DNA of 64,000 bases from Bacteroidales bacterium (GTDB taxonomy: Bacteria > Bacteroidota > Bacteroidia > Bacteroidales > UBA7960), in contig DATIKH010000026.1 in NCBI GenBank assembly GCA_035477775.1, positions 5,029-69,028 of the forward strand, given 5' to 3'. This document shows positions 5,048 to 24,091 of this stretch, piece by piece. The translations under genes and the position numbers were made by a program. How positions within the stretch are numbered: the first letter of the stretch is position 1; each line of letters begins with the position of its first letter. The notes beneath the pieces were generated by a model that saw nothing but the letters and a program-made list of their open reading frames with translations, did not search any database and was not told where the DNA came from.

Positions 5048-5324
5048 TGGAGAAAGAAAAAATAGCAATACAGATATTATGGTGAATCAATTTGTACAAA
5101 TGAAAAATAAGAACAGTTGAAAACCTTTTAGGAATTCATCCGGCTTACAACTTTTCAAAAATTTCTTTGGGGAAGGTTTCTGTTTAAAGCTCCTTCAAAA
5201 AGTGCTGCAAATTTAGATTTTATAAATATCCCTGCAAAATAAAATCGACAACATTTTGCAAAACAGCTCATCTGGCAGATGTTTTTTCAATGGTAAACAT
5301 TACCATTATTAAACCCAAACAAAA

Positions 5325-8070: not shown

Positions 8071-9747
8071 ATGATGAAAACCTTTCTGAAAATAAAGGCC
8101 CGGATAAAGGTTATACTCGTGGCTTCGGTATTGCTTGTTTCTATTCTTTTTTTATCGGCTTTTGGCTCCCGCAATTTCGAAATCGTCAAGAATCTCGACA
8201 TTTTTGCCAGCCTGTTTCGCGAACTGGTAGTAAACTATGTTGAAGAGATAGACCCTTCTGAGTTGGTTCAAACTGCCATTGATGAAATGCTGCTTACCCT
8301 CGACCCATATACTACCTTCATACCCGAATCGCAGCTCGAAGAAATTCAGTTTATGACTACCGGAACCTACGGAGGTATTGGAGCACTTATTGCAACCCGC
8401 GGGCAGCACACCATCATAGCTGAAATTTACGAAGGTTTTCCTGCGCATGTTTCTGGTCTGAAGGCAGGCGACAGAATCCTGTCGATAAGCGACAAGGAGG
8501 TGTCGGGACTACCGTCGGATGAGGTAAGGGAGTTGCTTGTAGGCCCTCCCGGAACGACAATTAACATCCTGGTGTCCCGGCAGGGTATTACCGAGTCTTT
8601 CTCGGTTCCAGTAACACGACAATTGGTTACCATAAGAAACGTCACCTATGCCGGCATGCTGCAGGATGGGATCGGGTACATTCTGGTTTCCGGTTTTACT
8701 CAAAATGCGGGTCGTGAGGTAAGAGATGCCCTACACTCGCTGAAGCAGGACCAACAACTACGGGGTGTCATCATCGACCTTAGAGGAAACGGTGGTGGTT
8801 TGTTGAACGAAGCCGTGAATATTACCAACCTGTTCGTTGAAAGAGACCAGATTGTGGTGAACACCAAGGGCAGGATTCCAGATCGGAATTCCACCCACCG
8901 CACGCTCAACGAACCATTAGACACCCGAATTCCACTGGTAGTAATGGTTGACAGGGGCTCGGCCTCGGCCTCCGAAATCGTTGCAGGCGCTATTCAGGAT
9001 TTAGACCGCGGTGTAATCTTAGGGCAACGCACATTCGGTAAAGGGCTGGTTCAAAACGTGGTTCCCCTTAGCTTCAACAGCCAGTTAAAAGTTACCGTGG
9101 CCAAGTATTACACCCCGAGTGGCCGCAGCATTCAGGCGATAAATTATGCCCAACGCAACGAAGATGGCAGCGTGGCCATGATTCCCGATTCGCTCAAGCA
9201 AGCCTTTAAAACCCGAAATGGCCGGGTTGTTTATGACGGCGGTGGCATCCTGCCCGACGTTGTTACCCCTGCTCCACAGCTAAGCCGCGTCTCTCAATCA
9301 CTTTTAGGAAGGTTCTTGATTTTTGATTTTGCCAGCTCGTTTTATCGTGACAACCCCGGACTTCAGTCAATCGAAGATTTTACAATAACCCCTGAGCTAT
9401 ACAACGATTTCAGGGAATTTCTTTCTGGCAAGGATTACAGCTACCAAACCAATACCGAAACGCTTTTGGCCGAACTTAAAAGAGCAGCTCAGGCCGAAAG
9501 AAAGTTCAGCGCTGTTGAAGCCGAATTCAATGCCCTGAAAGAAAAAATCTATGACACCAAAGAAGTAGATATTATAACCTTCAAGCCTGAAATTTCGCAG
9601 TTGCTCAAAGAAGAGATTGCTTCGAGGTATTTTCTGCAGAAAGGTCGCGTAATAGCCTCTCTGCCTTACGATCCTGAAATAAAGGAGGCAATCGGAATAT
9701 TGCTCGACCAGGAAAGATACAGGTCACTGCTTTCCCGCAGGAGGTAA
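8071..9747 (+). CDS. S41 family C-terminal processing peptidase
   Basis: PDZ-like block (GLKAGDRILSISD), IIDLRGNGGG, and a GSASASEIVAGAIQD serine site with FGKGLVQ. Confidence 0.9.
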   Translation: MMKTFLKIKARIKVILVASVLLVSILFLSAFGSRNFEIVKNLDIFASLFRELVVNYVEEIDPSELVQTAIDEMLLTLDPYTTFIPESQLEEIQFMTTGTYGGIGALIATRGQHTIIAEIYEGFPAHVSGLKAGDRILSISDKEVSGLPSDEVRELLVGPPGTTINILVSRQGITESFSVPVTRQLVTIRNVTYAGMLQDGIGYILVSGFTQNAGREVRDALHSLKQDQQLRGVIIDLRGNGGGLLNEAVNITNLFVERDQIVVNTKGRIPDRNSTHRTLNEPLDTRIPLVVMVDRGSASASEIVAGAIQDLDRGVILGQRTFGKGLVQNVVPLSFNSQLKVTVAKYYTPSGRSIQAINYAQRNEDGSVAMIPDSLKQAFKTRNGRVVYDGGGILPDVVTPAPQLSRVSQSLLGRFLIFDFASSFYRDNPGLQSIEDFTITPELYNDFREFLSGKDYSYQTNTETLLAELKRAAQAERKFSAVEAEFNALKEKIYDTKEVDIITFKPEISQLLKEEIASRYFLQKGRVIASLPYDPEIKEAIGILLDQERYRSLLSRRR

Positions 9748-9941
9748 CACCAGGAGTTTATTAAGCCAGATGCCTTCGGAGTACGTTTTGGCTATTATTG
9801 AAACGCTGAAGCGATTCCGAACATACCATGCCGCTGACAGAAATTTGAAAATCAGCTTTTTTAACCGGTTTTTCATTTTTTCTTCATCTTTTATTACACA
9901 ATTTTGCATTACATTTGAACAAAGCCCATTCATTTTATAGG

Positions 9942-10289
9942 ATGAAGATTTTTTATGCAATATCGATTGTGTTGTTTGTAAGCATGGTATGGACGCCTGG
10001 CATGGCCAAGGCAACCCAGATCGAAACATTGCTCTTGCAAGAGCCAATCGCTCAAAATCCGGGCATAAGGCCAACCCATCATCAGGAACAACTTTTTGCT
10101 CAGGCAGCCACCGAACGTCCAAGGCGTGTTGCGCCTGCCCGCAGGGCCCGACCGGATTCCAATGAACGTATTCAACCCCGCCAGGGAGCCCGCCCCGAAG
10201 TGGTTCGGCCTGGGGGCCGACCTGCCGGAATCGGAAGACCACAGGGGGCAGCCCGGCCTCAGGGAGCAGTGAGACCCAGGAGAAGATAA
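9942..10289 (+). CDS. Small secreted Arg/Pro/Gly-rich low-complexity protein
   Basis: ATG at 9942 gives the signal peptide MKIFYAISIVLFVSMVWTPGMAKA. The tail is RPRRVAPARRARP..GARPEVVRPGGRPAGIGRPQGAARPQGAVRPRRR. Coding status is uncertain because a long antisense ORF also exists. Confidence 0.45.
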   Translation: MKIFYAISIVLFVSMVWTPGMAKATQIETLLLQEPIAQNPGIRPTHHQEQLFAQAATERPRRVAPARRARPDSNERIQPRQGARPEVVRPGGRPAGIGRPQGAARPQGAVRPRRR

Positions 10290-10397
10290 CTCTGCTGACT
10301 ACTCCCTCCTAAATTATATGGTTATTCAACATAGCGGCAAATAAAAATAAGATATGGCCGTTAAAATTTTATTCCTTAAAAAACCAATATAAGTTGC

Positions 10398-11279
10398 ATG
10401 AGCTATACCATACGTAACCTGGCTAATTTGAAAAGCCTATCTGCATTTCTGGTCATTATGCAGTTTTTACTTGCAAGCAACAAGAGCTTTTCTTTCGAAA
10501 GCAATTCCGACACAACATATAAAAGCCTGCCTGACATACATCGCTTTTATGTCGGCATTACATACTCCAATTATCCTTCCTTTGTTCAGCCGGCTACTTT
10601 CGATTACGGTACAGGCTTTGCGTCCCATTTTTTATACTCCATGGACTTCGGACTTTGGGCCGAAGCCAGGCTGTACCACAATCCAGGAATGAGTCCTTTT
10701 GTTTCGGTAATCGATTTTTCGGCAGGATACAACCACATCTTCAGCAATACCTTCGATGCAGGTGTTGCGGTGACGCGATTCCTGAACAACATGAATCCAC
10801 AGGATCCATACCTTACCAATGCCACCATGCTGAACTTCAATCTGGGAGTTGACTGGAAGATATTATACACCAACATCATACCCGGATGGATGTGGGATGA
10901 AGATCCCACATTTTTTATCGCAGTTCAGAACAGCCGTTTCATTAAGAGTGCCACCTTTGGAAAAAACAACAGCTATTTTACCGCCAATCCGGGTTTTTAT
11001 ATTCTGTGGGGGCACGAGGTATGGCAAAGGCAATTGTCGCCTCTTTTTCTTGAAGCCTTGAGGCGGCGACAATTAACCCATCTCATCCCGGACCTGTCGC
11101 GAATGGAGGAACCATTCGGACTTCAAAGCCTTTTCATCAGCCTTCCCATCACTTTAGAATCCAGGCCATGGAGCTTTGAATTGGAGCCCTCCCTGGTTGT
11201 TGGCTTGAACAAAGATGCAGTTTTGGGCCAGCCTGAAGGATTTTTTTTGAATCTGGGTGTCTTCTTAAAGATTTTTTAG
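10398..11279 (+). CDS. Hypothetical outer-membrane-type protein leading the two-component operon
   Basis: N-terminal hydrophobic segment, Tyr/Phe/Asn/Gly-rich alternating pattern, and a C-terminal ..LGVFLKIF (terminal Phe). Its stop is 2 nt before the response-regulator start. Confidence 0.45.
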   Translation: MSYTIRNLANLKSLSAFLVIMQFLLASNKSFSFESNSDTTYKSLPDIHRFYVGITYSNYPSFVQPATFDYGTGFASHFLYSMDFGLWAEARLYHNPGMSPFVSVIDFSAGYNHIFSNTFDAGVAVTRFLNNMNPQDPYLTNATMLNFNLGVDWKILYTNIIPGWMWDEDPTFFIAVQNSRFIKSATFGKNNSYFTANPGFYILWGHEVWQRQLSPLFLEALRRRQLTHLIPDLSRMEEPFGLQSLFISLPITLESRPWSFELEPSLVVGLNKDAVLGQPEGFFLNLGVFLKIF

Positions 11280-11281
11280 CC

Positions 11282-11965
11282 GTGAATGTATTGATTGTTG
11301 AGGACGAGGTAAATCTGGCTCATGAGATTGCCTCCTTTTTACGAAAGGAGCATTTCCTGGTAGAAATTGCCACTACGGGAACTGAAGCTTCGGAGAAAAT
11401 AGCAGTAAACCTCTACGACTTTGTTTTGCTCGACCTGGGACTACCCGACTACGAAGGACTCGACCTGCTGGGTGAAGCCAGAAAGTCGGGACATGAAGCT
11501 GCATTTATCATTATCACCGCCAGAGGTGAAGTGGAAGAAAAAATAAAAGGTTTAGACCTTGGCGCCGACGACTACATTGCAAAACCTTTTTCGCTCCACG
11601 AACTCAGCGCCCGCATGAATGCCATTGCCCGGCGAAAATTTGGTTTGAACTCAAGTAATGTCGCCCTGGGCGAGTTTACGTTAGACATTTCAGCACGCAA
11701 AGTGTGGCACAACAACCAGGCGGTTGACCTTACCAAAAAACAATTTGACCTGCTACATTATCTGTCCATCAATAAAAACAAGGCACTCAGCAGAATTCAA
11801 CTTTACGAACATATTTGGGGCAACCTGCTTGGCGACGAGTACGACAGCAATTTCATTGATGTACATATAAAAAACCTCCGGAAAAAACTTGCAGAACACG
11901 CACCGGTCGATTGGCTCGAAACAGTAAGGGGCATAGGATACAGGGTAATTATCGAACAATCATGA
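11282..11965 (+). CDS. OmpR-family response regulator
   Basis: Receiver domain (VLIVEDE..DFVLLDLGLPDYEGLDLL..ADDYIAKPF) plus a winged-helix C-terminus (TKKQFDLLHYL..VRGIGYRV). GTG start. Confidence 0.9.
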   Translation: MNVLIVEDEVNLAHEIASFLRKEHFLVEIATTGTEASEKIAVNLYDFVLLDLGLPDYEGLDLLGEARKSGHEAAFIIITARGEVEEKIKGLDLGADDYIAKPFSLHELSARMNAIARRKFGLNSSNVALGEFTLDISARKVWHNNQAVDLTKKQFDLLHYLSINKNKALSRIQLYEHIWGNLLGDEYDSNFIDVHIKNLRKKLAEHAPVDWLETVRGIGYRVIIEQS

Positions 11966-13284
11966 AGCTGCGCTACAAGCTGGCAGTTTATAATCTGTTC
12001 ACAAAAGGCGTTTTTGTGGCCATATTCCTGTTGTTAATTCCATGGCTGCTAGAGCGGTTAAATGTTTATCAAACCGACCTCGAGCTGATTGAACAGCGGG
12101 AAGAGATCATGGAAGCCATTTCGGTCTTTGGAGCAGAGGAGTTGCTTTATAGCATCCAACCGGAAAGCTCCCCAACTTTTAACTTCCTACAACAAGAATA
12201 TATAAGCCTTGTAAGGGCAGATTCGGATAGTCTGGTAAATTTTATTGAGATATCTCCCCAACTGGTCGATGGAGAAATTGTGGATTACCGGGTATTGGTT
12301 TACTCTTTCAGGGTAGATGGCATAACCTATCTGCTCGAAATTGGTAAAAGTCTCGAACGCATATACAGGACAGAGCAAAACATCCGCAACATCACCCTGG
12401 TTATGCTGGGCTTGTTTGTAGTTATTGCATTCCTTACCGACACTTCCATGACACGCCTGCTTACCCAGCCTCTGGCAGCAATAACTCAGAAACTCAAAAA
12501 CACCAAGAATCCGGGTCAGTACGACCACAATCCGGTAGCTACCACCACGTATGATTTTGTATATCTCGACCAAACCATCTCCGATCTGATGCATCAAATC
12601 GAGGATCTTTTTGCAAAAGAAAAGGAGATCACTTCAAATATTTCGCACGAATTACTCACACCGATTTCGGTTGTTCAGAGCCGGCTCGAAAACCTGATTG
12701 AAGAAGAAGGACTTTCCGACAGACACATTGAGAAAATTTCGGATTCGCTGCGCACTTTGCACAGGCTCAAGGGAATCATCAACTCACTCTTACTGATTGC
12801 AAGGGTGGAAAACAAACAGTTTCTGAAAACGGATGCATTCTGGATCAATGAATTAATAGAAGAACTTCTGGAAGAACTTAGCCCAATCGCCCAGGAAAAA
12901 GGCATTAACTTTGTTGCAAAAATTGAAACAGACCATTACTTAAATGCCGCTAACCGCTCCCTTATTTTCACATTGTTTTTCAATATTTTGAACAATGCCG
13001 TAAAATTTTCGGAGCCCGAAAAACAGGGAGCAGTGGAGGTAGAAAGCCAAAGAATCAACAATGAATTCATAATTAAGATCATTGACCACGGGCCAGGAAT
13101 GAGTGCAGAACAGGCCGGGGAGATTTTTCAAAGGTTCAGAAAACGTAAATCTTCCAACGGGCATGGCTTAGGGCTGGCCATAGCAAAAAGGATTGCCGAT
13201 TTTCACAACATTGATATTCACGTCGAAACCCAACAAGGCAAAGGATCAACCTTTTATCTAATTTTTAAAATTTTTGATGTATGA
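11962..13284 (+). CDS. Sensor histidine kinase
   Basis: ATG at 11962 overlaps the regulator stop (ATGA). Two TM segments, H-box ISHELLTPISVV, N-box NNAVKFS, and G-boxes DHGPGM and GLGLAIAKRIA. Confidence 0.9.
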   Translation: MKLRYKLAVYNLFTKGVFVAIFLLLIPWLLERLNVYQTDLELIEQREEIMEAISVFGAEELLYSIQPESSPTFNFLQQEYISLVRADSDSLVNFIEISPQLVDGEIVDYRVLVYSFRVDGITYLLEIGKSLERIYRTEQNIRNITLVMLGLFVVIAFLTDTSMTRLLTQPLAAITQKLKNTKNPGQYDHNPVATTTYDFVYLDQTISDLMHQIEDLFAKEKEITSNISHELLTPISVVQSRLENLIEEEGLSDRHIEKISDSLRTLHRLKGIINSLLLIARVENKQFLKTDAFWINELIEELLEELSPIAQEKGINFVAKIETDHYLNAANRSLIFTLFFNILNNAVKFSEPEKQGAVEVESQRINNEFIIKIIDHGPGMSAEQAGEIFQRFRKRKSSNGHGLGLAIAKRIADFHNIDIHVETQQGKGSTFYLIFKIFDV

Positions 13285-13601
13285 AAAAACAATTGGTATT
13301 TATGACGATGGCGTTGGCATTTAGCGGCATAGCAGTGGCGCAGATGCATGAATCTACAGTAGCAGCAATTTCGGGTCAGCTGGTAAGCACAACATCACTC
13401 GACACGCTTTCAGGCCCAGGCAGGGGCGAGGCGGCCAGAGAGGGTGCAAGGGAACGTCGTAATGACCGGCACCAGATAAGAGATAATCGCAGAGACACCC
13501 GGCAGGAAATCAGGGAAGACCGCAGAGACACCCGACAGGGCGGCAGGGAAAAACGCCGGGACACCCGTCAGGATAACCGAAATCAGCGAAGGCAAGATTA
13601 A
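13281..13601 (+). CDS. Small secreted Arg/Asp/Gln-rich repeat protein, translationally coupled to the kinase
   Basis: ATGA overlap with the kinase stop. Signal peptide MKKQLVFMTMALAFSGIAVAQ. The motif RRDTRQ occurs three times with an 11-aa period. Confidence 0.55.
   Translation: MKKQLVFMTMALAFSGIAVAQMHESTVAAISGQLVSTTSLDTLSGPGRGEAAREGARERRNDRHQIRDNRRDTRQEIREDRRDTRQGGREKRRDTRQDNRNQRRQD
13488..13586 (+). repeat. Three 33-bp tandem repeats encoding the RRDTRQ units
   Basis: cgcagagacacccggcagg at 13488, cgcagagacacccgacagg at 13521 and cgccgggacacccgtcagg at 13554. Confidence 0.8.
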
Positions 13602-13669
13602 CTAAAATGTTTGGGGTTACCCGGACTCAAAATACCTACCCATATCCGTGCCATTCGGTTAGGAATCAT

Positions 13670-13677
13670 TAATTTTG
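13670..13677 (+). promoter_or_regulatory. Bacteroidota-type -7 box (TAnnTTTG)
   Basis: TAATTTTG lies 30 nt upstream of the kbl ATG at 13707. Confidence 0.35.
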
Positions 13678-13706
13678 AGCCCTCAAACAAAACGTTAACC
13701 TTCGCT

Positions 13707-14903
13707 ATGTACGGCAAAATAAAAGAGCATCTTCAAAATCAGCTAAGTGAAATAAAACAGGCAGGCCTTTTCAAAACCGAACGCATCATTACCAGCCCGC
13801 AGGGTGTTGAAATAGTAGCCAACGACAAAAAGGTGCTGAATTTTTGTGCCAACAATTACCTTGGCCTTTCGTCAGATCCAAGGGTTATGGCGGCAGCAAA
13901 TTATACCTTCTTTAAATACGGGTATGGCATGTCGTCGGTAAGGTTTATCTGCGGCACGCAACAGGTACACAAGGATTTGGAAAAAAAACTGAGTGGGTTT
14001 CTCGGAACCGACGATACCATCCTTTTTTCTTCGGCCTTCGATGCCAATGGCGGGGTTTTCGAGCCTTTGCTTGGTGAACAGGATGCCATCATTTCAGACG
14101 AGCTCAACCATGCTTCCATTATCGACGGGATAAGGCTTTGTAAAGCCAAGCGGTTCCGGTACAAAAACAACGACATGGAAGACCTCGAAGAGGTTTTGCA
14201 GGACGCCAGCGAGGCCCGGTTTAAGCTGATTGTTACCGATGGTGTTTTTTCGATGGACGGGATCATTGCCGACCTGGATAAGATTTGCGATCTGGCCGAA
14301 AAATACGATGCCCTGGTGATGGTCGATGATTCGCATGCTACGGGCTTTGTGGGCAAAACCGGACGAGGAACCCATGAGTACCACAACGTGATTGACCGGG
14401 TGGATATCATTTGCACCACTTTTGGCAAAGCATTAGGGGGAGCATCGGGCGGTTGCATCTCGGGTCGCCGCGAGATTATCGAACTGCTCCGTCAGAGGGC
14501 AAGACCATATCTCTTCTCCAATTCGCTGGCTCCATCCATTGCCGGGGCAACCCTCGAAGTGGTCAATATGCTATCTGAAACCACCGCCCTGCGCGATAAA
14601 CTTTATGAGAACACCCAACTTTTCCGGAAGGGAATGACCGAAGCCGGTTTTAAAATTGTTCCCGGTGTTCATTCCATCGTACCGGTTCTTTTTGGCCACC
14701 TGCCCGACGATGCAAAACTGTCGCAGCAGTTTGCTGACGCCTTGCTCGATGAAGGCATTTATGTTATTGGGTTTTATTTTCCGGTAGTACCCAAAGGCAA
14801 ATCGCGCATTCGCGTGCAACTAAGCGCAGCCCACAGCAAGGAACAGGTAGAGTTTGCCATCGGCAAATTTGTTAAAGTAGGTAAACGATTAGGCACCATT
14901 TGA
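13707..14903 (+). CDS. kbl: Glycine C-acetyltransferase / 2-amino-3-ketobutyrate CoA ligase (alpha-oxoamine synthase)
   Basis: 398 aa from the ATG at 13707. It is close to E. coli Kbl in blocks I recall: [59 protein letters not shown] and [12 protein letters not shown] (PLP lysine). Confidence 0.9.
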
Positions 14904-15292
14904 TTTTCGGTTTAGGAACTGATATCATCGAGGTTGACCGCATCAGGAAGACCATGGAAGCCGACCCGGACTTCCGACATCAGATATTTTCACCTGCCGA
15001 AATCAGCTATTGTGAGTCAAAAGCGTATCCTTGCCGGCACTACGCTGCACGTTTCTGCGCAAAGGAAGCTTTTTTGAAGGCCTTAGGCACCGGATTCAAT
15101 GCAGGTATTAGCCTGACTGAAATTGAGGTTCTTCAGGAACCTTCCTGCAGGCCATTCATAAAACTTACAGGCTCAGCCAAAGATTTTTTCGAAAAATTTG
15201 GTTTTTCAAAAATACTTGTATCTTTATCGCACCTCAAAGACATTGCGGTTGCGGTCGTTATCATTGAAAAGGAGGAGTTGCGTATAGGTTAA
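14900..15292 (+). CDS. acpS: Holo-[acyl-carrier-protein] synthase
   Basis: [15 protein letters not shown].., [22 protein letters not shown] and VSLSH. TTG start overlapping the kbl stop by 4 nt. Confidence 0.9.
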
Positions 15293-15385
15293 ATAGCAGA
15301 TAAAGCATTACATAAGGCAAAATTTCTCAACGGCCATTCTTAATGAGAAAATTCAATAAGTATTAACATAAACTGACTGAGTATT

Positions 15386-17089
15386 ATGGGGCATATTGGG
15401 TCTTACGAAGAAAGAGTTAAGAATTTTAACTGGGAAATAGCTGAAAAAGAATTGGAATACCAGCCAGGAAATGTGATCAACATCGGCTGGTATTGTTCTG
15501 ACAGGATATGCCTTATGGGCAAGGCCGACAAGCCGGGGCTCATCTGGGAAGGTTTGGGCGGGAAAGAAAAAACCTTTACCTACAACGACATTCGGATTGC
15601 CAGCAACACCATCGGTCAGTTTTTGCGCAACCTGGGCATAAATCCCGAAGACCGTGTCTGCCTGTTCATGGACAAGGTACCCGAACTATACCTGGGATTT
15701 TTAGGAGTACTTAAAATTGGCGCCATTGCCCAACCGCTCTTTTCGGCTTTCGGCGACGAATCGCTTTTTGTTCGCCTCGAAAATGCTGAAACCCGGGCCA
15801 TCATCACCCAGAAAAAACACGCTCCTAAAGTTCGGAAGATCATTGACAAAATGCCCTTCCTGGAATATATCATCATTGTTGACCACGACCCTGCGAAGCC
15901 GCTGGGACCGCGCGAAGTGGCCTTCGACCTGGAAAAAACACCGCCTGTCGATCACTTCAAAATTCATCCCACCAAAGCCGAATCTCCTTCGGTGCTTCAC
16001 TATACCTCCGGCACCACAGGGCAGCCCAAGGGGGTAAAACATGTTCATTATTCACTTATTTCGCAATACCTTACCGCCAAATGGGTGCTCGACCTTCAGG
16101 AGGACGATATTTACTGGTGTACAGCCGATCCCGGCTGGGTAACGGGTACTTCCTACGGCATTATTGGCGGATTCAGCAACGGGGCAACCCTGTGTGTTCT
16201 CGATGCGGGTTTCTCGGCCGAGGCATGGTACCGGTTCATAGAAAAACACCGGGTAACCATGTGGTATTCGGCCCCAACGGCCATCCGCTCGCTGATGAAA
16301 GCCGGCGATGAGGTGGTGAAAAAGTTCGACCTGAGTTGCCTGCGCCATCTTGCCTCTGTTGGCGAGCCGCTTAACTCCGAAGCTGTGATCTGGTCGCAAA
16401 AAGTTTTCGGAAAGCCGTTTTACGACACTTACTGGCAAACCGAGACCGGTTCGATCATGATCTCAAACTACCCCGGCATGAAAGTAAAACCGGGATCCAT
16501 GGGCAAACCCTTTCCGGGCATCGAGGCCACCGTGGTACACCCCGAAACCTTCGACCCCTTTACAGAAACTGGCAAAGTGGGCATCATTGCAATAAAACCA
16601 GGCTGGCCGGCCATGATGCGCACCTACTGGCGCAACGAGGAGGCCTTTAATAAAAAATTCAGGAAGGGCTGGTATCTGCCAGGCGACCGTTCGAGTATCG
16701 ACGCCGAAGGGTATTTCTGGTTTGTAGGGCGCGACGACGATGTGATCAATACTGGCGGGCACCTGGTAAGCCCCTTCGAAGTGGAATCGGCCCTGCTCGA
16801 GCATCCGGCCGTAGCTGAGTCGGCAGTCGTGGCCAAACCCGACTTTGTAAACATGGAGGTGGTTAAAGCCTTCATAACCCTAAAACCTGGTTTTACTGCA
16901 AGCGCCGACCTCGACCTCGACATTATGAACTTCGTAAGGAAAAAACTATCGCCCCTGGCCATGCCACAGGAAATAGAGTTCGTCGAAACATTGCCTAAAA
17001 CCCGCAGCGGAAAGATCATGCGCCGAATCCTGAAAGCCAAGGAGTGGGGCGAAGAAATCGGCGACACTTCAACCCTTGAAGATGATTGA
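15386..17089 (+). CDS. Adenylate-forming ligase of the AcsA / acetyl-CoA synthetase type
   Basis: YTSGTTGQPKGV, YWQTETG, GDR..IDAEGYFWF.GR.DDVI and PKTRSGKIMRR. The N-terminal region resembles what I recall of Bacillus AcsA (~570 aa class). Confidence 0.85.
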   Translation: MGHIGSYEERVKNFNWEIAEKELEYQPGNVINIGWYCSDRICLMGKADKPGLIWEGLGGKEKTFTYNDIRIASNTIGQFLRNLGINPEDRVCLFMDKVPELYLGFLGVLKIGAIAQPLFSAFGDESLFVRLENAETRAIITQKKHAPKVRKIIDKMPFLEYIIIVDHDPAKPLGPREVAFDLEKTPPVDHFKIHPTKAESPSVLHYTSGTTGQPKGVKHVHYSLISQYLTAKWVLDLQEDDIYWCTADPGWVTGTSYGIIGGFSNGATLCVLDAGFSAEAWYRFIEKHRVTMWYSAPTAIRSLMKAGDEVVKKFDLSCLRHLASVGEPLNSEAVIWSQKVFGKPFYDTYWQTETGSIMISNYPGMKVKPGSMGKPFPGIEATVVHPETFDPFTETGKVGIIAIKPGWPAMMRTYWRNEEAFNKKFRKGWYLPGDRSSIDAEGYFWFVGRDDDVINTGGHLVSPFEVESALLEHPAVAESAVVAKPDFVNMEVVKAFITLKPGFTASADLDLDIMNFVRKKLSPLAMPQEIEFVETLPKTRSGKIMRRILKAKEWGEEIGDTSTLEDD

Positions 17090-17170
17090 TTTTAGGAGAG
17101 ATTTAAACCGGAAGTAAATACTAAGGCTTAACTTAAAAATAATCACCAACCACTAAAAGAGATACAGCTT

Positions 17171-17413
17171 ATGAACGAAATGAAAGACATTGTAAGGGAA
17201 TATGTAATCAACGAGTATGTTGAAGACGACACCGAGATCAACTACGACACTCCGCTGATTTCGGGTGGTATCGTTGACTCTTTCTCAATGGTTTCGCTCA
17301 AACGTTTCCTTGAGAACAAATACAAAATTTCTATTCCCGACGACAAGGCCACACCCGACGCTTTCGACAGTGTGAACAAAATCGTTGACCTGGTAAATGA
17401 ATTCTTAAAATAG
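17171..17413 (+). CDS. Stand-alone acyl carrier protein (phosphopantetheine-binding)
   Basis: 80 aa and acidic, with a GGIVDSFSMVSL serine attachment motif. It lies between the ligase and the second oxoamine synthase. Confidence 0.8.
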   Translation: MNEMKDIVREYVINEYVEDDTEINYDTPLISGGIVDSFSMVSLKRFLENKYKISIPDDKATPDAFDSVNKIVDLVNEFLK

Positions 17414-17421
17414 GAGGCGCT

Positions 17422-18669
17422 ATGGCATATCCGGAAAAAACAAGGGCAATGTATGCCGGGGTGATCGAAGGCATTAAAGAAGCTGGATTGTTCAAGCAGG
17501 AGCGCTTTATCCATTCTTCGCAGGCAGCCGATATCGAAGTGGAGTTTCCTGCGGGCGCTTCTCCTAAGAAGGCCATAAACATCTGCGCCAACAACTACCT
17601 GGGCATGTCGAGCCACCCCGAGGTGGTCAAGGCTGCCCACGAAGGTCTCGAATCGCATGGCTACGGAATGTCGTCGGTGAGGTTTATTTGCGGCACCCAG
17701 GATATCCACAAAAAGTTGGAAGAAATGGTTACAGAATTTCTGGGAACCGAGGACACCATCCTGTTTCCATCGTGCATGGATGCCAATGCCGGAGTATTCG
17801 AAGCCATCCTTACCAAGGACGACATCATCATTTCCGACCGGTTGGTGCATGCCTCGCTCATCGACGGCATTCGCCTCTGCAGCGCAATGCATGACACCTT
17901 CAAGCACTCCGACATGGAGCACCTCGAAAGCAAGCTGCAATTGCATAACGACCGCAGAATAAAAATGGTAGTAACCGACGGGGTTTTCTCCATGGATGGC
18001 GACACCGCCAAATTAGACGAAATGGTAGCTCTATGTGAAAAGTATGATGCCCTGCTGTTGGTTGACGATTCGCATGCAAGCGGTTTTATAGGCAAAACCG
18101 GACGCGGCACGCACGAGCAATATGGCGTGATGGGCAAGATTGATCTGATTACCACCACTTTTGGCAAGGGCCTAGGGGGTGCATCGGGCGGTTGCGTTTC
18201 GGGTCGCAGGGAACTGGTTGAGTTGTGCCGGCAGCGTGCCCGGCCGTACCTTTTCTCCAACACCATAGCGCCGCCCATCATAGCAGGCGTCATCAGGGTG
18301 CTTGAGATCCTTTCAGCCTCGACCGACCGCCGCGACAAGCTCGAAAAAAACACCGAATTCTGGCGCAACGGATTGATCAACGCCGGCTTTATCGTAAAAC
18401 CGGGCGACACTCCAATTGTACCTGTTATGCTTTTCAATGCCAAGCTGGCGCAGAATTTCTCGCGCGACCTGTTCGATGAAGGCATTTATGCCATCGGGTT
18501 CTTCTTCCCGGTAGTGCCCCAGAGCCATGCCAGGATCAGAACCCAGATATCGGCCGGACATGAGATGCATCATCTCGAAAAGGCCCTCGAAGCATTTATT
18601 AAAGTGGGCAAAAAGTACAAAATCCTCGGAAAGTCGAAACAAGAGATTATCGACATGTACGGCATTTAA
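17422..18669 (+). CDS. Diverged alpha-oxoamine synthase (Kbl/BioF/Spt superfamily paralog)
   Basis: AGGAGG lies 7 nt before the ATG. It retains [27 protein letters not shown] and TFGKGLGGASGG (PLP lysine). It differs from Kbl at LVHAS, PSCMDANAG and RLCSAMHDTFKHSDM, and has about a dozen extra C-terminal residues. Confidence 0.85.
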   Translation: MAYPEKTRAMYAGVIEGIKEAGLFKQERFIHSSQAADIEVEFPAGASPKKAINICANNYLGMSSHPEVVKAAHEGLESHGYGMSSVRFICGTQDIHKKLEEMVTEFLGTEDTILFPSCMDANAGVFEAILTKDDIIISDRLVHASLIDGIRLCSAMHDTFKHSDMEHLESKLQLHNDRRIKMVVTDGVFSMDGDTAKLDEMVALCEKYDALLLVDDSHASGFIGKTGRGTHEQYGVMGKIDLITTTFGKGLGGASGGCVSGRRELVELCRQRARPYLFSNTIAPPIIAGVIRVLEILSASTDRRDKLEKNTEFWRNGLINAGFIVKPGDTPIVPVMLFNAKLAQNFSRDLFDEGIYAIGFFFPVVPQSHARIRTQISAGHEMHHLEKALEAFIKVGKKYKILGKSKQEIIDMYGI

Positions 18670-18692
18670 AAACTGCCTTCGAAAACCAAAAG

Positions 18693-18719
18693 CCCCGCAA
18701 GAAATTGCGGGGTTTTTTA
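18693..18719 (+). terminator. Rho-independent terminator closing the kbl..AOS2 operon
   Basis: Stem ccccgcaa / ttgcgggg with loop gaaa, followed by tttttt. Confidence 0.85.
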
Positions 18720-18797
18720 TTGGCGCCGGGCAGCAACAATATGAGAACATGTTGATTTGTTGAAACTTTTTTGCTATTTTGCATGACGTTTTCAATT

Positions 18798-18827
18798 CAT
18801 AGCCCACGGTTTAAACCGTGGGCTATG
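18798..18827. repeat. Perfect 30-nt palindrome, copy 1
   Basis: catagcccacggtttaaaccgtgggctatg is its own reverse complement. Confidence 0.9.
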
Positions 18828-18870
18828 ATAGGAATGGATAAATCCGTGAATAAAAATTCGAATGCCATTA

Positions 18871-18898
18871 ATAGCCCAGGTTTAAACCGTGGGCTATG
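18871..18898. repeat. Same palindrome, copy 2, with a 1-nt deletion in the left arm
   Basis: atagcccaggtttaaaccgtgggctatg, about 73 nt downstream of copy 1. A partial acggtttaaa recurs near 18940. Confidence 0.85.
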
Positions 18899-18983
18899 AG
18901 GGTGAAACCAAAATTCCGAAACTGTTTTAACGGTTTAAAAAAAAGCTGGCAAACATCAACCAATAACCTTAAATTAAATTCCG

Positions 18984-20537
18984 ATGAAAAGAGTTTTAAT
19001 GCTGATCCTTACAATTATTTGGGTTACCCTGCAGGTAAACGCCAATCCTCCTGAACAACGGGAAGGTGTGCCTGCACATACGCTTCAGGCTCTCGATTCT
19101 CTTTTTCAACAAGTTCAAAAAGACTGGGAATTGCCTGGCATGGCCGTAGGCATTGTATATAACGGTCAGCTGATATTTAGCAAAGGTTATGGTGTAAAGG
19201 AAACTGGCAAGTCTGCAACTCCCGATGCCAACACCCTGTTTGCCATTGCCTCCAACACCAAGGCCTTTACCGCAGTGCTAATGGGCATGCTGGTTCAGGA
19301 CGGACTCCTTTCGTGGGACGATAAGGTAAAAGATCATTTGCCTTATTTCGAGATTTTCGACCCCTGGGTGAGCAGTCAGGTAACCTTGCGCGATTTGCTG
19401 AGTCATCGGGTCGGCCTGGGCACATTCAGCGGTGATCTGATCTGGTATAGAAGCACCAAATCCTCAAAAGAAATGATAAAGAGGATCAGACATCTTCCCC
19501 AGGTTTTTGATTTCAGGGCAGGATATGGTTATTCAAATCTGATGTTCATCGTAGCCGGAGAGGTGATCGAACAGGTTACAGGAAAATCATGGGAGGAAAA
19601 TGTGCGCAAGAGGATTCTGGAACCTTTGGGGATGAACCGCACGATAGTACAATTGAAAGATTTGCACGTCAAGGGAAATTTTGCCAGCCCGCATATGCGG
19701 ATCAACAACCAAAATGTGGTAATCGACTGGGTTGACTGGGAAGAAGTTGCAGCTACCGGAGGACTGATATCCAGCATAAACGACATGGCCAGGTGGATGC
19801 AGTTCAACATGAATATGGGCGTATGGAATGGCGACACCCTGCTGAAGCGCGACAACATGAATCTAATTTGGACGCCGCACAACAATTTTACGGTTGACCA
19901 TACTCTGACCAACGACTTCGACCGGCATTTCAGAGGTTACGGATTGGGCTGGGGCGTGGGCGATTATCACGGGCGGCTGGTGGTGGGGCATACAGGCGCC
20001 TACGACGGTATGTTTTCGGAAGTTCGCATGTTGCCAAAGGAAGGTATAGGAGTTATAGTACTAACCAACGGCGACATGAGCCCGATAGGTCCGATAACAA
20101 ACCACACCCTGGAGACTTTGTTGGGAAAAACACCCCGCGACTGGTCAGCTGAGGCTTTACCAAGGGCTCGTCGGCGGTTTCAGGAGGATGAGCGAATCAC
20201 AGCCATCAGAAATGCCAGAATCGATAATACCACACCTACCCTGCCTATGGAGCGCTATGCAGGGAAATATTACTCGGCTATTTACGGGAATATTTTCGTG
20301 AGATACGAAAACAATCAGCTTCGACTTACCTTTGAGCATTCTCCTGGACTTTCGGCAAGCCTTCGGCACTGGCATTACGATGTTTGGGAAATCCTGTGGG
20401 ACAAGCCACAGGCCTGGTTTGGGTTCGGAACGCTGCAATTTAACATGAACAATAAGCTGAATATTACCGGCCTCACTTTCGATGTGCCCAACCGCGATTT
20501 CTACTTCGAAGAGTTGAAGCCCATGAAGGTTAAATAG
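18984..20537 (+). CDS. Serine hydrolase, class C beta-lactamase / PBP-like family
   Basis: Signal peptide, SxxK motif (ASNTKAF), YSN motif (YGYSNLMF) and an HTG motif (VGHTGAYDG). Confidence 0.85.
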   Translation: MKRVLMLILTIIWVTLQVNANPPEQREGVPAHTLQALDSLFQQVQKDWELPGMAVGIVYNGQLIFSKGYGVKETGKSATPDANTLFAIASNTKAFTAVLMGMLVQDGLLSWDDKVKDHLPYFEIFDPWVSSQVTLRDLLSHRVGLGTFSGDLIWYRSTKSSKEMIKRIRHLPQVFDFRAGYGYSNLMFIVAGEVIEQVTGKSWEENVRKRILEPLGMNRTIVQLKDLHVKGNFASPHMRINNQNVVIDWVDWEEVAATGGLISSINDMARWMQFNMNMGVWNGDTLLKRDNMNLIWTPHNNFTVDHTLTNDFDRHFRGYGLGWGVGDYHGRLVVGHTGAYDGMFSEVRMLPKEGIGVIVLTNGDMSPIGPITNHTLETLLGKTPRDWSAEALPRARRRFQEDERITAIRNARIDNTTPTLPMERYAGKYYSAIYGNIFVRYENNQLRLTFEHSPGLSASLRHWHYDVWEILWDKPQAWFGFGTLQFNMNNKLNITGLTFDVPNRDFYFEELKPMKVK

Positions 20538-20581
20538 TCAGAAATACCGCTTTCCCTGATAGTCATAAGGGCTCAAAAGAT

Positions 20582-20589
20582 TAATTTTG
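20582..20589 (+). promoter_or_regulatory. Bacteroidota-type -7 box (TAnnTTTG)
   Basis: TAATTTTG lies 17 nt upstream of the pyk ATG. Confidence 0.4.
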
Positions 20590-20605
20590 CCGAAAATTCT
20601 AGAAT

Positions 20606-22027
20606 ATGGAAAAACTCACCAAAATTGTAGCCACGATTTCCGATCAACGTTGCGATCCTTCCTTCTTAGGCACTTTGCATGCGGCGGGCATGGATGTGGT
20701 AAGGATAAATACCGCACACCAAACCCCCGAACAAGCCATGAAGGTGGTTGAAAACGTACGCAAGGTATCCACCCGGATCGCCATCATGCTCGACACCAAA
20801 GGTCCGGAAATCCGCACCAATGCTTCTTCCTATGTGTTGAAAGTGGCTAAGGATCAGCTACTGGTAATTAAAGGCAGGAAGAATACGCCCTCCGACGAGC
20901 ATTGCCTCTATGTGGACTACGAAGGCATCGCCGATCTGCTGGAAGTTGGCAGACTTATTATGATAGATGATGGTGAAATTGAAATAGAAGTAGCAGAAAA
21001 ACATCCCGGATACCTGGTTGGCCGTGTGTGCAATGCAGGACAAATTAAAGGCCGCAAAAGCATAAACCTGCCAGGAATTGCCATCGGTCTCCCTTCGCTT
21101 ACCCAAAAAGACCGGGAATTTATTGAATTTGGCATTAGAAACAACATCGATTTCATAGCACATTCCTTTGTCAGAAACAAACAGGATGTTCTGGACATTC
21201 AGCAAATTCTTGACCGCCACAAAAGTCCCATAAAAATTATTGCCAAAATTGAAAACCAACAGGGTATTGACAATATCGACGATATACTTGGCCATGTTTA
21301 CGGGATCATGGTGGCCAGGGGCGATCTTGCCATTGAGGTGCCGGCCGAGCGCATTCCGGTAATTCAGGCTATGTTAATCCAAAAGGGCATTTCACAAAAG
21401 AAAGCTGTGATTGTAGCCACGCAGATGCTCCATTCGATGATAAGCAACCCCAGGCCTACCCGGGCCGAAATAAGCGATATTGCGACAGCGATCTTTTCGG
21501 GGGCCGATGCCATCATGCTGAGCGGCGAAACGGCTTTTGGCAATTATCCGGCAGAAGCTGTGAGTTTCATGACCCGAACCGCCAGAGAAACAGAACAAAG
21601 CAGACCTTTTCTTCCCGACATTCAGGTGATGCCTCACGATAACGAAATATCTGTTTACCTTTCCAAAACTGCCGTAAGTTCAACCGACCAGCTCAACGCA
21701 CGGGCAATCATCACCGACACCGATACGGGAAAAACGGCCCGCTACCTCTCTGCATTCAGGGGCAGAACCCCCATATATGCTCAATGTTACGACCAACGGG
21801 TTGTTCGCGAACTGGCGCTTAATTATGGCATTTACGCCGATTTTATGGATGTGAAAACCTCCAAAAAAGAGTTTACGATTGCCACCCTCACCCGGCTGAT
21901 AGAAAAAAAGGAAATAAAGCCGGAGGATCTGATAACGGTAATGGCCGGAAACTTTGGCAAGAAATCGGGTCCCAGCTACATCGAAATCAGCACAGTACAA
22001 AATATGCTTTCGAATATTAAAGTCTGA
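20606..22027 (+). CDS. pyk: Pyruvate kinase
   Basis: KIVATI...MDVVRINTAH, LDTKGPEIRT, IIAKIENQQG, MVARGDLAIEVP and IMLSGETA. Confidence 0.95.
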   Translation: MEKLTKIVATISDQRCDPSFLGTLHAAGMDVVRINTAHQTPEQAMKVVENVRKVSTRIAIMLDTKGPEIRTNASSYVLKVAKDQLLVIKGRKNTPSDEHCLYVDYEGIADLLEVGRLIMIDDGEIEIEVAEKHPGYLVGRVCNAGQIKGRKSINLPGIAIGLPSLTQKDREFIEFGIRNNIDFIAHSFVRNKQDVLDIQQILDRHKSPIKIIAKIENQQGIDNIDDILGHVYGIMVARGDLAIEVPAERIPVIQAMLIQKGISQKKAVIVATQMLHSMISNPRPTRAEISDIATAIFSGADAIMLSGETAFGNYPAEAVSFMTRTARETEQSRPFLPDIQVMPHDNEISVYLSKTAVSSTDQLNARAIITDTDTGKTARYLSAFRGRTPIYAQCYDQRVVRELALNYGIYADFMDVKTSKKEFTIATLTRLIEKKEIKPEDLITVMAGNFGKKSGPSYIEISTVQNMLSNIKV

Positions 22028-22078
22028 AAAAAAGTTGACCTTTCACGAACTCTAAACTGGCAAATAGACGCAAGTTTG

Positions 22079-22651
22079 CTAATTCCAGTTAAGGGTAGCT
22101 ATAAGGTGTCTGATGTCCGTTTCAAGAAATTGAATGACCGGTGCAAGGGAGTCGTTGTTGGGCGTTACATAAAAATACAGAGAGCCCCGAAGGAAATGGT
22201 TTACGCTGTCGGTGAGGAAAAACTGCAACGGCGAGGCCACATCCCTGCCCCTGATGTGGTACAACATGCCAAAGACCCGTCTTTGTTCATCCATAAACAA
22301 TTCTTCGTCTATAGCAGAAGCTTTAGGAATATGCCGGCTGGTGAATTCACGGCTATCTTCCAGAAATGCATTCAGGCTTTGCGGGCTGCGAACCGCCTTA
22401 TAGGTAAGGTGGATTCTTGCCCTAAATTCCGGAAAAACCACATCGGCCCAGTAGGGCATAGAATTAGGCCGCGTATTGGGCTCAAAGGTACCATACACAG
22501 GAATCTCGAAAGAGTATGGAAAGTCCTGATCAAAAGGTTTAAACTCCTTTTCCGGTAAGTCGATTCTGAAATAGGCCCTTGGTTTGGGGGCGTGTGGTTG
22601 CTGGCATGAAATCAGCGCCAACATAATAAACAACGAAAAAAGAATTTTCAT
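22079..22651 (-). CDS. gldD: Gliding motility lipoprotein GldD
   Basis: Lipoprotein signal (..LALISC), size of 190 aa, and position immediately downstream of the gldE-like gene as in Flavobacterium. The family call is from memory of the GldD pattern (PKP.AY.RI..P...Y). Confidence 0.65.
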   Translation of the reverse strand: MKILFSLFIMLALISCQQPHAPKPRAYFRIDLPEKEFKPFDQDFPYSFEIPVYGTFEPNTRPNSMPYWADVVFPEFRARIHLTYKAVRSPQSLNAFLEDSREFTSRHIPKASAIDEELFMDEQRRVFGMLYHIRGRDVASPLQFFLTDSVNHFLRGSLYFYVTPNNDSLAPVIQFLETDIRHLIATLNWN

Positions 22652-22756
22652 CCGGAAGTCAAATTAAGTTGCAGGTTTTCACCACAAAGGAGCGAAAAAA
22701 TAATTGTATAAAATGGTTTTGTTTAATTCATCTGCGAATGAACAGCCGCTGAAATT

Positions 22757-24091
22757 TTAATTCATTGGCAGAATGGTAACCTTAACGCGTTTGATCCGGC
22801 GGGCATCAACCCCCTCCACCTGAAACTCGAAATTGCGAAAATGCAATTTCTCTCCCTTTCGGGGGAGTTCCTGCTTCATTTCAAGTATAAGCCCTGCCAG
22901 GGTATCGGCTTCGCCTTTTATTTCTTCGAATAACTCATAATCGGTACCAGTTATTTTACAAAAGTCCTTGAGCAACGTTTTTCCTTCGAAATCGAAAGTG
23001 TTTGGGTCGAGTTTCGAGTAAATATTCTCGTCGGTATCGAACTCATCATTTATTTCGCCTACGATTTCTTCAAGGATGTCCTCCAGGGTAACAATACCTG
23101 CGGTACCACCATATTCGTCAACCACAATGGCCAGGTGAATCTTCTTTTCCTTGAACTCCTTAAGCAAATCACTAATTCTCTTGCTTTCCGGAACAAAATA
23201 GCATGGGCGCAGCAATTTCTGCCAGGCAAAACTGTCATCTTGCTCACGGTGCGACAATAAGTCTTTTATATAAAGGATTCCTTCAACATTGTCGAAACTT
23301 TCGCGAAACACGGGAACCCGGCTATACCCTGCCTCAACTATTACCGGCAACAATTTGGAGAAAGGGGTAGAAACCTCTACTGCCGTAACATCTACCCTCG
23401 GGCGCATGATCTCGCGGGCGCTTAGGTTTCCAAACCTGACTATTCCGCGCAGAATGCTCCTGTCCTCTTCGGTGGCAACCCTTTGAACCTGCTGGTCAAA
23501 AACCTCTGTCAAATCGTTGATGCGATGGTTGGAATCGTTCGTCCATGACTGGTCATTGCTTTTAGCCGAAGTATTATCAAGGATTCGGCTGAATGGCCAA
23601 AACAGTTTGCGAAGCAACCAAACAGGTATTGCCATTAACCTAACAAACAAAACAGGCCTTTTCAAGGCCAACCCTTTAGGCAGGATTTCACCAAAAACCA
23701 GTATAACTATACCAATAAATAAAACCAAAAGAACAAAACCGGCGAGGGGATGCAGGTTTTGGTAAATAAGATTTGCAAAAACCAGGGTGACACTAATTGC
23801 CAACACAATATTGACAAGTATATTGGCAAGTATCAAAGTGGATTTTAAACTTCGCGGACTTTCCAACAGGCGTAATGCAAAACGACTATTGGGGCTGCTG
23901 CTTTTCATCAACAGATCGATCTGTACTCCCGAAAGGGAAAAAAAGGCAGTACCCGCTCCTGACAAAAGCCCGGAGATGAGTAAAAGAATTATAAACAGGG
24001 TAATTACAGGTAAAATGTGGAGTGCCTCCGAACCGGTGAGAAAACTATTAATAAGAGGCAAAACAGAATAAGGCTCAGGTGTGTCTTCCAA
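22757..24091 (-). CDS. gldE: GldE / CNNM-type protein (DUF21 + CBS pair + CorC_HlyC)
   Basis: N-terminal TM domain, CBS-pair region (REIMRPRVDV..VPVF..) and a C-terminal transporter-associated domain (F.V..VD.RRI..V.V). Confidence 0.75.
   Translation of the reverse strand: MEDTPEPYSVLPLINSFLTGSEALHILPVITLFIILLLISGLLSGAGTAFFSLSGVQIDLLMKSSSPNSRFALRLLESPRSLKSTLILANILVNIVLAISVTLVFANLIYQNLHPLAGFVLLVLFIGIVILVFGEILPKGLALKRPVLFVRLMAIPVWLLRKLFWPFSRILDNTSAKSNDQSWTNDSNHRINDLTEVFDQQVQRVATEEDRSILRGIVRFGNLSAREIMRPRVDVTAVEVSTPFSKLLPVIVEAGYSRVPVFRESFDNVEGILYIKDLLSHREQDDSFAWQKLLRPCYFVPESKRISDLLKEFKEKKIHLAIVVDEYGGTAGIVTLEDILEEIVGEINDEFDTDENIYSKLDPNTFDFEGKTLLKDFCKITGTDYELFEEIKGEADTLAGLILEMKQELPRKGEKLHFRNFEFQVEGVDARRIKRVKVTILPMN

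Follow-up and report, generated by a model that had tools for sequence, protein, structure and literature searches.

What use would a bacterium that already has an ordinary 2-amino-3-ketobutyrate CoA ligase (Kbl) have for a second enzyme of the same kind, encoded immediately behind a small carrier protein and an acetyl-CoA-synthetase (Acs)-type ligase? The question is raised by a 64,000-nucleotide (nt) stretch of contig DATIKH010000026.1 from a Bacteroidales bacterium (hereafter the window). Its open reading frames (ORFs) place five genes on the forward strand, as a first-pass annotation had read them: kbl1, acpS, the ligase gene, the carrier gene, and a gene for a second pyridoxal phosphate (PLP)-dependent oxoamine synthase, AOS2 (Table 1). 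We propose, with a probability of roughly 60%, that the last three form a module in which a private carrier protein replaces coenzyme A (CoA) in the Kbl reaction. On the best reading of the evidence, the module would serve primary acetate, glycine, and threonine metabolism rather than the synthesis of a lipid or a pyrazine natural product.

The ligase, carrier, and AOS2 genes are a strict, co-conserved three-gene core. A scan for the carrier in a collection holding one genome per species matched at least 600 stretches, at least 454 of which were confirmed by tblastn; the best 80 were analyzed and, with two further loci, make up a set of 82 loci. Counting only loci with room on the contig for the neighbor in question, the ligase gene lies directly upstream of the carrier gene in 70 of 73, the AOS2 gene directly downstream of it in 77 of 78, and acpS directly upstream of the ligase gene in 56 of 64. 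Triplet adjacency spans seven phylum labels. The hosts, fermentative anaerobes of sediment and groundwater, are Bacteroidota (57 loci), Zixibacteria, Delongbacteria, Ignavibacteriota, Acidobacteriota/Aminicenantes, and Cloacimonadota (the Acidobacteriota label is that of a contig titled Acidobacteria; two contigs titled Aminicenantes carry no phylum label). Named relatives among the best 120 matches to AOS2 are all metagenome-assembled genomes (MAGs). The first-pass annotation had recognized in a ligase, a dedicated carrier, and an oxoamine synthase the logic of carrier-dependent condensation and had staked that idea on co-conservation of the triplet in relatives, which these counts uphold decisively.

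Individual loci depart from the common layout. About 6 kb separates the ligase gene from the carrier gene in L078, and in L079 an additional carrier gene (65% identical) precedes that of the ligase. A few contigs are labeled Pseudomonadota (L035, L046, and L049, with Alphaproteobacteria, Hyphomicrobiales, or Proteobacteria labels); L035, near-identical to L039, and L046 are probably mis-binned, because both nest inside Bacteroidales clades in our trees, which did not include L049. The ligase of L075 and L077 and the AOS2 of L077 are split into several frames; since both loci come from long-read-style MAGs, these breaks are probably assembly frameshifts and not pseudogenes.

The ligase, which bears the motifs YTSGTTGQPKGV and YWQTETG, belongs to a lineage of its own that branches from the short Bacillus-type AcsA. 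Its identity to Bacillus subtilis AcsA (PDB 9g79) is 48%, and it passes the AcsA model PRK04319 marginally (743.2 bits; cut-off 729), compared with 840.8 bits for P0122, an orthodox relative. Its clade is monophyletic (support 100), with paths of at most 0.43 within it and at least 1.45 to any other Acs, and an exhaustive search of 1.8 billion representatives returned no full-length relative at 50–75% identity, the nearest outsiders lying at 49% or below. The closest of these (P0121, P0122, and P0124; 47–49% identical) are orthodox AcsA enzymes. All three lack a carrier or oxoamine synthase neighbor, and the 78-aa ORF that follows P0122 shows no relationship to the carrier, so a wider family of Acs enzymes with carriers was rejected.

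The ANL core motifs, the P-loop, D500, R515, the catalytic Lys (K609 in the Salmonella enterica numbering used for these residues, K543 in the window ligase), and the acetylation motif PKTRSGKIMRR are invariant in 68 of 68 clade ligases. The acetate-pocket residues V252, T253, V325, and W350 (V310, T311, V386, and W414 in S. enterica Acs) are likewise unchanged in all 68, so that acetate or at most propionate is favored as the substrate and fatty acids are disfavored. The earlier description of a short-chain ligase therefore stands. Three changes are fixed in the clade: L460, N489, and M490 in the window protein, corresponding to R526L, K555N, and G556M. Position 526 is Leu in 68 of 68 and Arg in 34 of 59 outgroup sequences; the pair K555N and G556M, found in none of the 59, is unique to the clade. 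R584 is kept. The loop for the CoA 3'-phosphate (R191–R194) is missing from every clade ligase, but its absence is not diagnostic, because B. subtilis AcsA, among 48 of the 59 outgroup sequences, lacks it too. The likeness to Bacillus-type AcsA thus covers length class, pocket, catalytic Lys, and acetylation motif, whereas the edge-of-cut-off score, the fixed changes, and the occurrence only beside the carrier set the window ligase apart. We propose that its acceptor would be the carrier protein, which would make it an acetate:carrier-protein ligase.

The 80-aa protein encoded between the ligase and AOS2 is, by its predicted structure, a helical-bundle carrier of the phosphopantetheine type, with the Ser of its DS motif placed before helix II. 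The AF2 model (pLDDT 84.5) has helices at residues 3–16, 40–51, and 68–79, and Ser37 of GGIVDSFSMV, the predicted phosphopantetheine site, falls just before the second. D36 and S37 are invariant, and residues 27–71 are near-invariant across six phyla; databases contain about 7,600 relatives, and identity does not fall below 83% in the best 120. The structures nearest to the model (Foldseek; TM 0.76–0.79) are PigG, PltL, and DltC, carriers loaded by dedicated adenylating enzymes, and one match is DltC in complex with AcpS. At the sequence level, matches to DltC, PltL, and PigG are weak, the Pfam PP-binding model gives none at E <= 0.001, and NCBIfam carrier models match below their cut-offs. 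The window AcpS scores 93 bits on TIGR00516 (cut-off 59.8) and is proposed to phosphopantetheinylate the carrier; AcpS-type transferases can serve stand-alone carriers of this kind (PDB 7R49). In DltA-DltC, PltF-PltL, and PigI-PigG, too, one dedicated ANL enzyme loads a small type II carrier. Those systems serve cell-wall or pyrrole pathways, and their carriers bear amino acids (D-Ala, L-Pro), whereas the load proposed here is acetate, for a PLP-dependent Claisen enzyme.

Kbl1 is an orthodox Kbl (EC 2.3.1.29), as first described: it scores 631.6 bits on NF005394 (cut-off 460) and 621.4 on TIGR01822 (cut-off 493) and groups with the Bacteroidales Kbl clade. AOS2 is 57% identical to it and passes both of these Kbl equivalog models (558.5 and 567.1 bits, respectively), and its best solved relatives are the Kbls 7BXP and 1FC4. 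In the tree, AOS2 forms a single clade (support 100, stem 0.5) nested inside the Kbl radiation; the group made up of AOS2 and Bacteroidales Kbl1 excludes the proteobacterial Kbls of solved structure. The first-pass annotation had called AOS2 a diverged second oxoamine synthase. A long-stemmed, conserved clade of its own is what remains of that description, but because AOS2 passes both Kbl models it is diverged only in a relative sense. The annotation had also named branching within Kbl, together with use of acetyl-CoA and glycine, as the outcome that would overturn its idea, and the position of AOS2 inside the Kbl radiation is the first half of that outcome.

In AOS2, which is a fold-type I enzyme, the Schiff-base K249, the stacking H143, the D215/H218 pair, S190, the carboxylate-binding R373, and the glycine-site loop are invariant (75 of 75) and the same as in Kbl. 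The clade nevertheless shows 25 strict substitution differences from Kbl, together with clade-specific insert and tail positions. LNHAS, beside the PLP-stacking His, has become LVHAS, with A/E changed to R two residues earlier, and SSxFDAN, beside the PLP-binding motif, has become PSCMDAN; R140, V142, P116, and M119 are thus A133R, N135V, S109P, and F112M in Escherichia coli numbering. An insert, FPxG, occupies positions 42–45, and a 13-residue C-terminal tail around 403–414 is conserved. The gene neighborhood argues that the likely thioester partner of AOS2 is the carrier rather than CoA. Nearly every locus has one LVHAS enzyme and one LNHAS enzyme, as would be expected if the two used different thiol partners. 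Set beside the classical threonine dehydrogenase (Tdh)-Kbl system (E. coli kbl-tdh, 1FC4; Cupriavidus Kbl, 7BXP), AOS2 keeps all Kbl motifs, an SDR-type Tdh is linked to the module in 14 related loci, and an ordinary Kbl adjoins it here. It differs in its long stem, the changes by the PLP-stacking His, the four-residue insert and the tail, the adjacent carrier and Acs-type ligase genes, and the thiol proposed to serve it.

Delongbacteria-type loci (L029, L036, L043, L045, L048, and L078) have a third oxoamine synthase directly after AOS2. This paralogue forms the sister clade of AOS2, shares the insert and tail, keeps LNHAS and SSAFDAN, and scores 584 bits, above the Kbl cut-offs. Recent gene conversion between kbl1 and the AOS2 gene was considered and rejected (nucleotide identity 65%, longest shared word 18 nt, third-position identity 28–62%); the duplication is old.

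The pocket of the ligase and the placement of AOS2 bear directly on the possibility that the module makes a lipid long-chain base of sphingolipid, sulfonolipid, or capnine type from a fatty acyl-carrier. Its three-gene logic is that of a module of Rhodobacteria (Caulobacter crescentus CC_1165/CC_1163/CC_1162), a cluster of dedicated ligase (AasR), small carrier (AcpR), and fold-type I PLP-dependent serine palmitoyltransferase (SPT), in which AasR acylates AcpR only and SPT prefers acyl-AcpR (PMC9386255); SulA of Alistipes is an oxoamine synthase of lipid synthesis in Bacteroidota (PMC9304779). The Caulobacter system, however, uses long-chain fatty acids and L-serine, which a decarboxylative condensation turns into a lipid base. 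In the present module, the ligase is of Acs type with an acetate-sized pocket, the synthase derives from Kbl and has a glycine site, the carrier resembles DltC and PltL, and related loci hold acetate and threonine genes instead of ceramide genes. All four pocket residues are invariant, including W414, which closes the acetate pocket; AOS2, besides nesting in Kbl, reaches 231–311 bits on three SPT models with cut-offs of 500–670; and no ceramide synthase, reductase, or lipid genes lie nearby. A lipid base, which the first-pass annotation had already doubted, has a negligible likelihood and is excluded as far as sequence can tell.

We therefore return to Kbl chemistry on a private carrier and to how it might proceed. 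AcpS would add phosphopantetheine to Ser37 of the carrier, and the ligase would adenylate acetate and acetylate the carrier thiol (acetate + ATP + HS-carrier -> acetyl-S-carrier + AMP + PPi). The same net reaction is carried out by CitC (acetate:SH-citrate lyase ligase, EC 6.2.1.22), which has an unrelated fold and belongs to an unrelated pathway with an unrelated carrier, the citrate lyase gamma subunit with its different prosthetic group. AOS2 would interconvert acetyl-S-carrier and glycine with 2-amino-3-ketobutyrate and HS-carrier; 2-amino-3-ketobutyrate would go to L-threonine via threonine dehydrogenase or decay to aminoacetone; and the adjacent Kbl1 would carry out the same reaction with CoA. 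Nearly all of such a private pool could be maintained in the acetylated form, or nearly all in the free form, with the CoA pool undisturbed. This thermodynamic insulation would put the thioester/thiol ratio of the carrier beyond the reach of the shared CoA pool, and thus an otherwise one-sided step could be driven. That the insulated acetyl-carrier pool lets CoA-independent Kbl chemistry serve ATP-driven threonine synthesis, or ATP harvest from threonine, in anaerobes of many phyla is a tentative extension to which we give slightly less than even odds.

Several observations weigh against a carrier-based route. Since AOS2 passes the Kbl cut-offs, it may use acetyl-CoA; the ligase, too, could be able to form acetyl-CoA, given its retained R584 and its score above the AcsA equivalog cut-off. 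In two loci (L051 and L061), no ligase gene adjoins the carrier and AOS2 genes. With pta-ackA and an ordinary Kbl already present, the organism has no evident physiological need for a second, carrier-based route, and the metatranscriptome contigs described below may contain DNA carry-over. Perhaps, then, the two enzymes are ordinary and CoA-dependent (an acetyl-CoA synthetase and another Kbl), and the carrier gene between them has a different function or none. The NCBIfam AcsA and Kbl equivalog cut-offs passed by the two enzymes and their wholly orthodox catalytic residues would fit, and public annotation uses just such names ("acetate--CoA ligase / ACP / glycine C-acetyltransferase"). The near-obligate adjacency is hard to square with this view, as is a carrier more conserved than almost all else in the loci. 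The ligase and AOS2 form long-stemmed clades found only beside the carrier, and the nearest AcsA relatives are without one; the carrier and AOS2 genes are closely spaced, both with conserved Shine-Dalgarno (SD) sites; and the Kbl or Kbl-type paralogue usual in the same locus would make AOS2 redundant. We consider two ordinary CoA enzymes improbable.

The genes that recur around the module were found by clustering all ORFs of the related loci and naming the frequent families. An AceTr/SatP acetate transporter directly follows AOS2 in 27 loci (275 bits; cut-off 50). Secreted thioredoxin-like proteins recur in 22, Pat-like proteins of the ADP-forming-ACS/GNAT type in 15, SDR-type L-threonine 3-dehydrogenases in 14 (364 bits to PDB 2YY7), and iron alcohol dehydrogenases in 13. 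The same locus usually also has an ordinary Kbl or a Kbl-type paralogue. In Zixibacteria and Ignavibacteriota, the threonine dehydrogenase gene lies on the same strand directly upstream of acpS and the ligase gene. The Pat-like gene recalls the regulation of Bacillus-type AcsA by lysine acetylation (AcuA/Pat). None of the five families is found in this window. For tdh, noted as missing at first pass, tblastn with the SDR-type enzyme found no gene in the window, nor did any of the ten ORFs of 286–431 aa that were scanned match the Zn-type. Neither the clustering nor the flanks showed lipid, tailoring, export, or regulatory genes recurring with the module, and in other phyla the flanks (urea transporter, Ser/Thr kinase, Hsp20, transposase) gave no functional clues.

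These neighbors also bear on the product suggested by the first-pass annotation, a small aminoketone, pyrazine, or aminoalcohol. The module would then join a short acyl-carrier to an amino acid, with the aminoketone as end product or signal precursor. The chemistry is that of the condensing direction and so is possible; moreover, 2-amino-3-ketobutyrate decarboxylates spontaneously to aminoacetone, a dimethylpyrazine precursor (PMC9814548). What fits poorly is the setting: no tailoring, export, or regulatory genes recur, the neighbors are acetate, threonine, and glycine genes, and 75–87% identity across phyla, with at least 454 confirmed stretches in the one-genome-per-species set, has the look of core metabolism. 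The extreme conservation between phyla, the absence of tailoring genes, and the acetate, threonine, Pat-like, and Kbl neighbors together indicate primary metabolism, and we regard a specialized metabolite as decidedly improbable. A paper on the DPO autoinducer (PMC12930378), considered as a link between an adenylating enzyme and aminoacetone, proved not relevant to the module.

As to direction, we lean modestly toward condensation, with consumption of acetate. All carrier-linked oxoamine synthases known to us condense, the AceTr and Pat-like neighbors recall acetate-scavenging acs loci, and an ordinary Kbl already covers cleavage. Run in reverse, the module would be a device for energy-conserving threonine catabolism: Tdh would yield 2-amino-3-ketobutyrate, AOS2 would cleave this to glycine and acetyl-S-carrier, the ligase would make acetate and ATP from acetyl-S-carrier, AMP, and PPi, and AceTr would export the acetate. 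Linkage of Tdh, AceTr, and the module in related loci is consistent with this, as is the fermentative life of the hosts, and exergonic thiolysis could charge an insulated carrier pool. There is a precedent in Syntrophus aciditrophicus, whose AMP-forming Acs makes ATP from acetyl-CoA (PMC4992975), with a catalytic bias set by the CoA-binding loop (PMC13404658), the loop absent from all 68 clade ligases. That loop, however, is also absent from ordinary short AcsA (the 48 outgroup sequences above). The pta and ackA genes of the window already give ATP from acetyl-CoA, so that an ATP-yielding reading is less necessary, though possible. The condensing habit of known carrier-linked synthases likewise tells against reversal, and elsewhere the arrangement of acs with an acetate transporter and Pat serves acetate uptake. 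We consider threonine catabolism by this route unlikely, though not negligible.

If Kbl chemistry does run on the carrier, the module would represent a new kind of carrier-protein role, in central rather than secondary or lipid metabolism. As far as is known, its ligase would be the first Acs-type enzyme to acetylate a carrier protein and AOS2 the first Kbl to work on one. For hundreds of species, uncultured bacteria from sediment, groundwater, and digesters, three proteins would then be misread, and a carrier-insulated acetyl pool would be added to anaerobic acetate, glycine, and threonine metabolism, with a bearing on metabolic models. The novelty lies in a ligase/carrier/oxoamine-synthase triad with an unexpected substrate class, placed in central metabolism. 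Full-text literature searches for the combination found no published description of the module, in agreement with the earlier remark that no characterized Bacteroidota pathway was known to have this five-gene layout. As a compact, highly conserved set of ligase, carrier, and C-C-bond enzyme, it would be of use for biocatalysis, and it is small enough to be reconstituted from synthetic genes.

The positions of the genes and signals are given in Table 1. The start of Kbl1 is placed at the ATG at 13707; a longer ORF opens with TTG at 13611, but homologues begin at the ATG. AcpS starts with TTG and so retains its conserved terminal residues. The close packing described at first pass can be read directly: the start of acpS and the stop of kbl1 share a 4-nt overlap (TTGA), and 8 nt separate the carrier and AOS2 genes (8–18 nt in most loci), with AGGAGG ahead of AOS2 overlapping the carrier stop codon TAG (17411–17413). 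The terminator that closes the set is likewise as described, with the hairpin CCCCGCAA-GAAA-TTGCGGGG at 18693–18712 and TTTTTT at 18713–18718. The -7 consensus of Bacteroidota promoters is TAnnTTTG, and a candidate box lies ahead of kbl1.

Table 1. Features of the locus, by position in the window, and identity of related proteins to the window protein
Feature	Position	Strand	Basis or remark	Identity to window protein
Kbl1, orthodox glycine C-acetyltransferase (2-amino-3-ketobutyrate CoA ligase), 398 aa	13707..14903	+	profile models, tree	62-85%
AcpS-type holo-carrier-protein synthase, 130 aa	14900..15292	+	PF01648, TIGR00516	29-60%
Acs-type adenylating ligase, carrier-linked clade, 567 aa	15386..17089	+	PRK04319, clade alignment	75-86%
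Stand-alone carrier protein, 80 aa, with GGIVDSFSMV	17171..17413	+	fold model, conservation	74-87%
AOS2, Kbl-derived PLP oxoamine synthase, carrier-linked clade, 415 aa	17422..18669	+	TIGR01822, tree	76-87%
Shine-Dalgarno AGGAGG	17412..17417	+	read from sequence; 4 nt ahead of AOS2 ATG	
Intrinsic terminator	18693..18719	+	8-bp GC-rich stem, GAAA loop, T6	
Candidate Bacteroidota -7 promoter box TAATTTTG	13670..13677	+	putative; 30 nt ahead of kbl1 ATG	
Acetate kinase and phosphotransacetylase genes, two ORFs	2760-3986 and 4046-5068	-	about 9 kb upstream	

The window flanks of the five genes (S41 peptidase, OmpR/histidine kinase pair, beta-lactamase-like protein, pyruvate kinase, GldD) appear functionally unrelated to them; the presence of GldD identifies the host as a member of Bacteroidota. 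The acetate kinase (TIGR00016, 523 bits) and phosphotransacetylase (376–418 bits) farther upstream mean that a CoA route between acetate and acetyl-CoA is already present in the organism. Searches with Rfam found no relevant riboswitch or leader, either in ten loci (gathering threshold) or in positions 9000–23000 of the window (E <= 1).

Subsurface metatranscriptomes contain contigs from a relative about 93–95% identical to the window. One contig of 1941 nt links the 3' end of the ligase gene, the carrier gene, and the AOS2 gene, and a second covers the carrier and AOS2 genes as far as the terminator; RNA-derived contigs end at 18680–18698. At the other end, contigs from three runs stop at 15246, 15253, and 15254, within the 3' end of acpS. 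Because RNA-derived contigs end there, a separate start for the triplet is suggested, and transcription of the ligase, carrier, and AOS2 genes may begin internally at 15246–15254. Coverage of kbl1 and acpS is thinner than that of the triplet, contig depth being a poor measure of expression. A TATCTTTA box occurs at 15220–15227, about 20 nt upstream of these contig ends.

Translation signals single out two of the genes. In the Bacteroidota loci of the set L004–L083, which are poor in SD sites, an SD-core match of at least 5 nt precedes 82% of carrier genes and 74% of AOS2 genes, compared with 5% of 328 other ORFs, 4% of ligase genes, and 3% of kbl1 genes; in this window, only AOS2 has one. The bias may mean that translation is under special control, such as by bS21-lacking ribosomes, or that a stoichiometry is enforced.

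Two further features were observed around the five genes. After the histidine kinase gene, a 106-aa ORF (13281–13601) begins much like a signal peptide and ends in a tail rich in Arg and Asp, built of R-(R/N)-D-x-R-(Q/H) repeats (e.g., NDRHQ, RRDTRQ, DNRNQ); it has no Pfam match. Between the terminator and the next gene lies a perfect 28-nt palindrome, ATAGCCCACGGTTTAAACCGTGGGCTAT, at 18799–18826, with a degenerate second copy at about 18872–18900. The region bears a weak, sub-threshold likeness to Acido-Lenti-1 RNA (26 bits; cut-off 37), and a 34-nt metatranscriptome contig with a depth of 40 spans the first copy.

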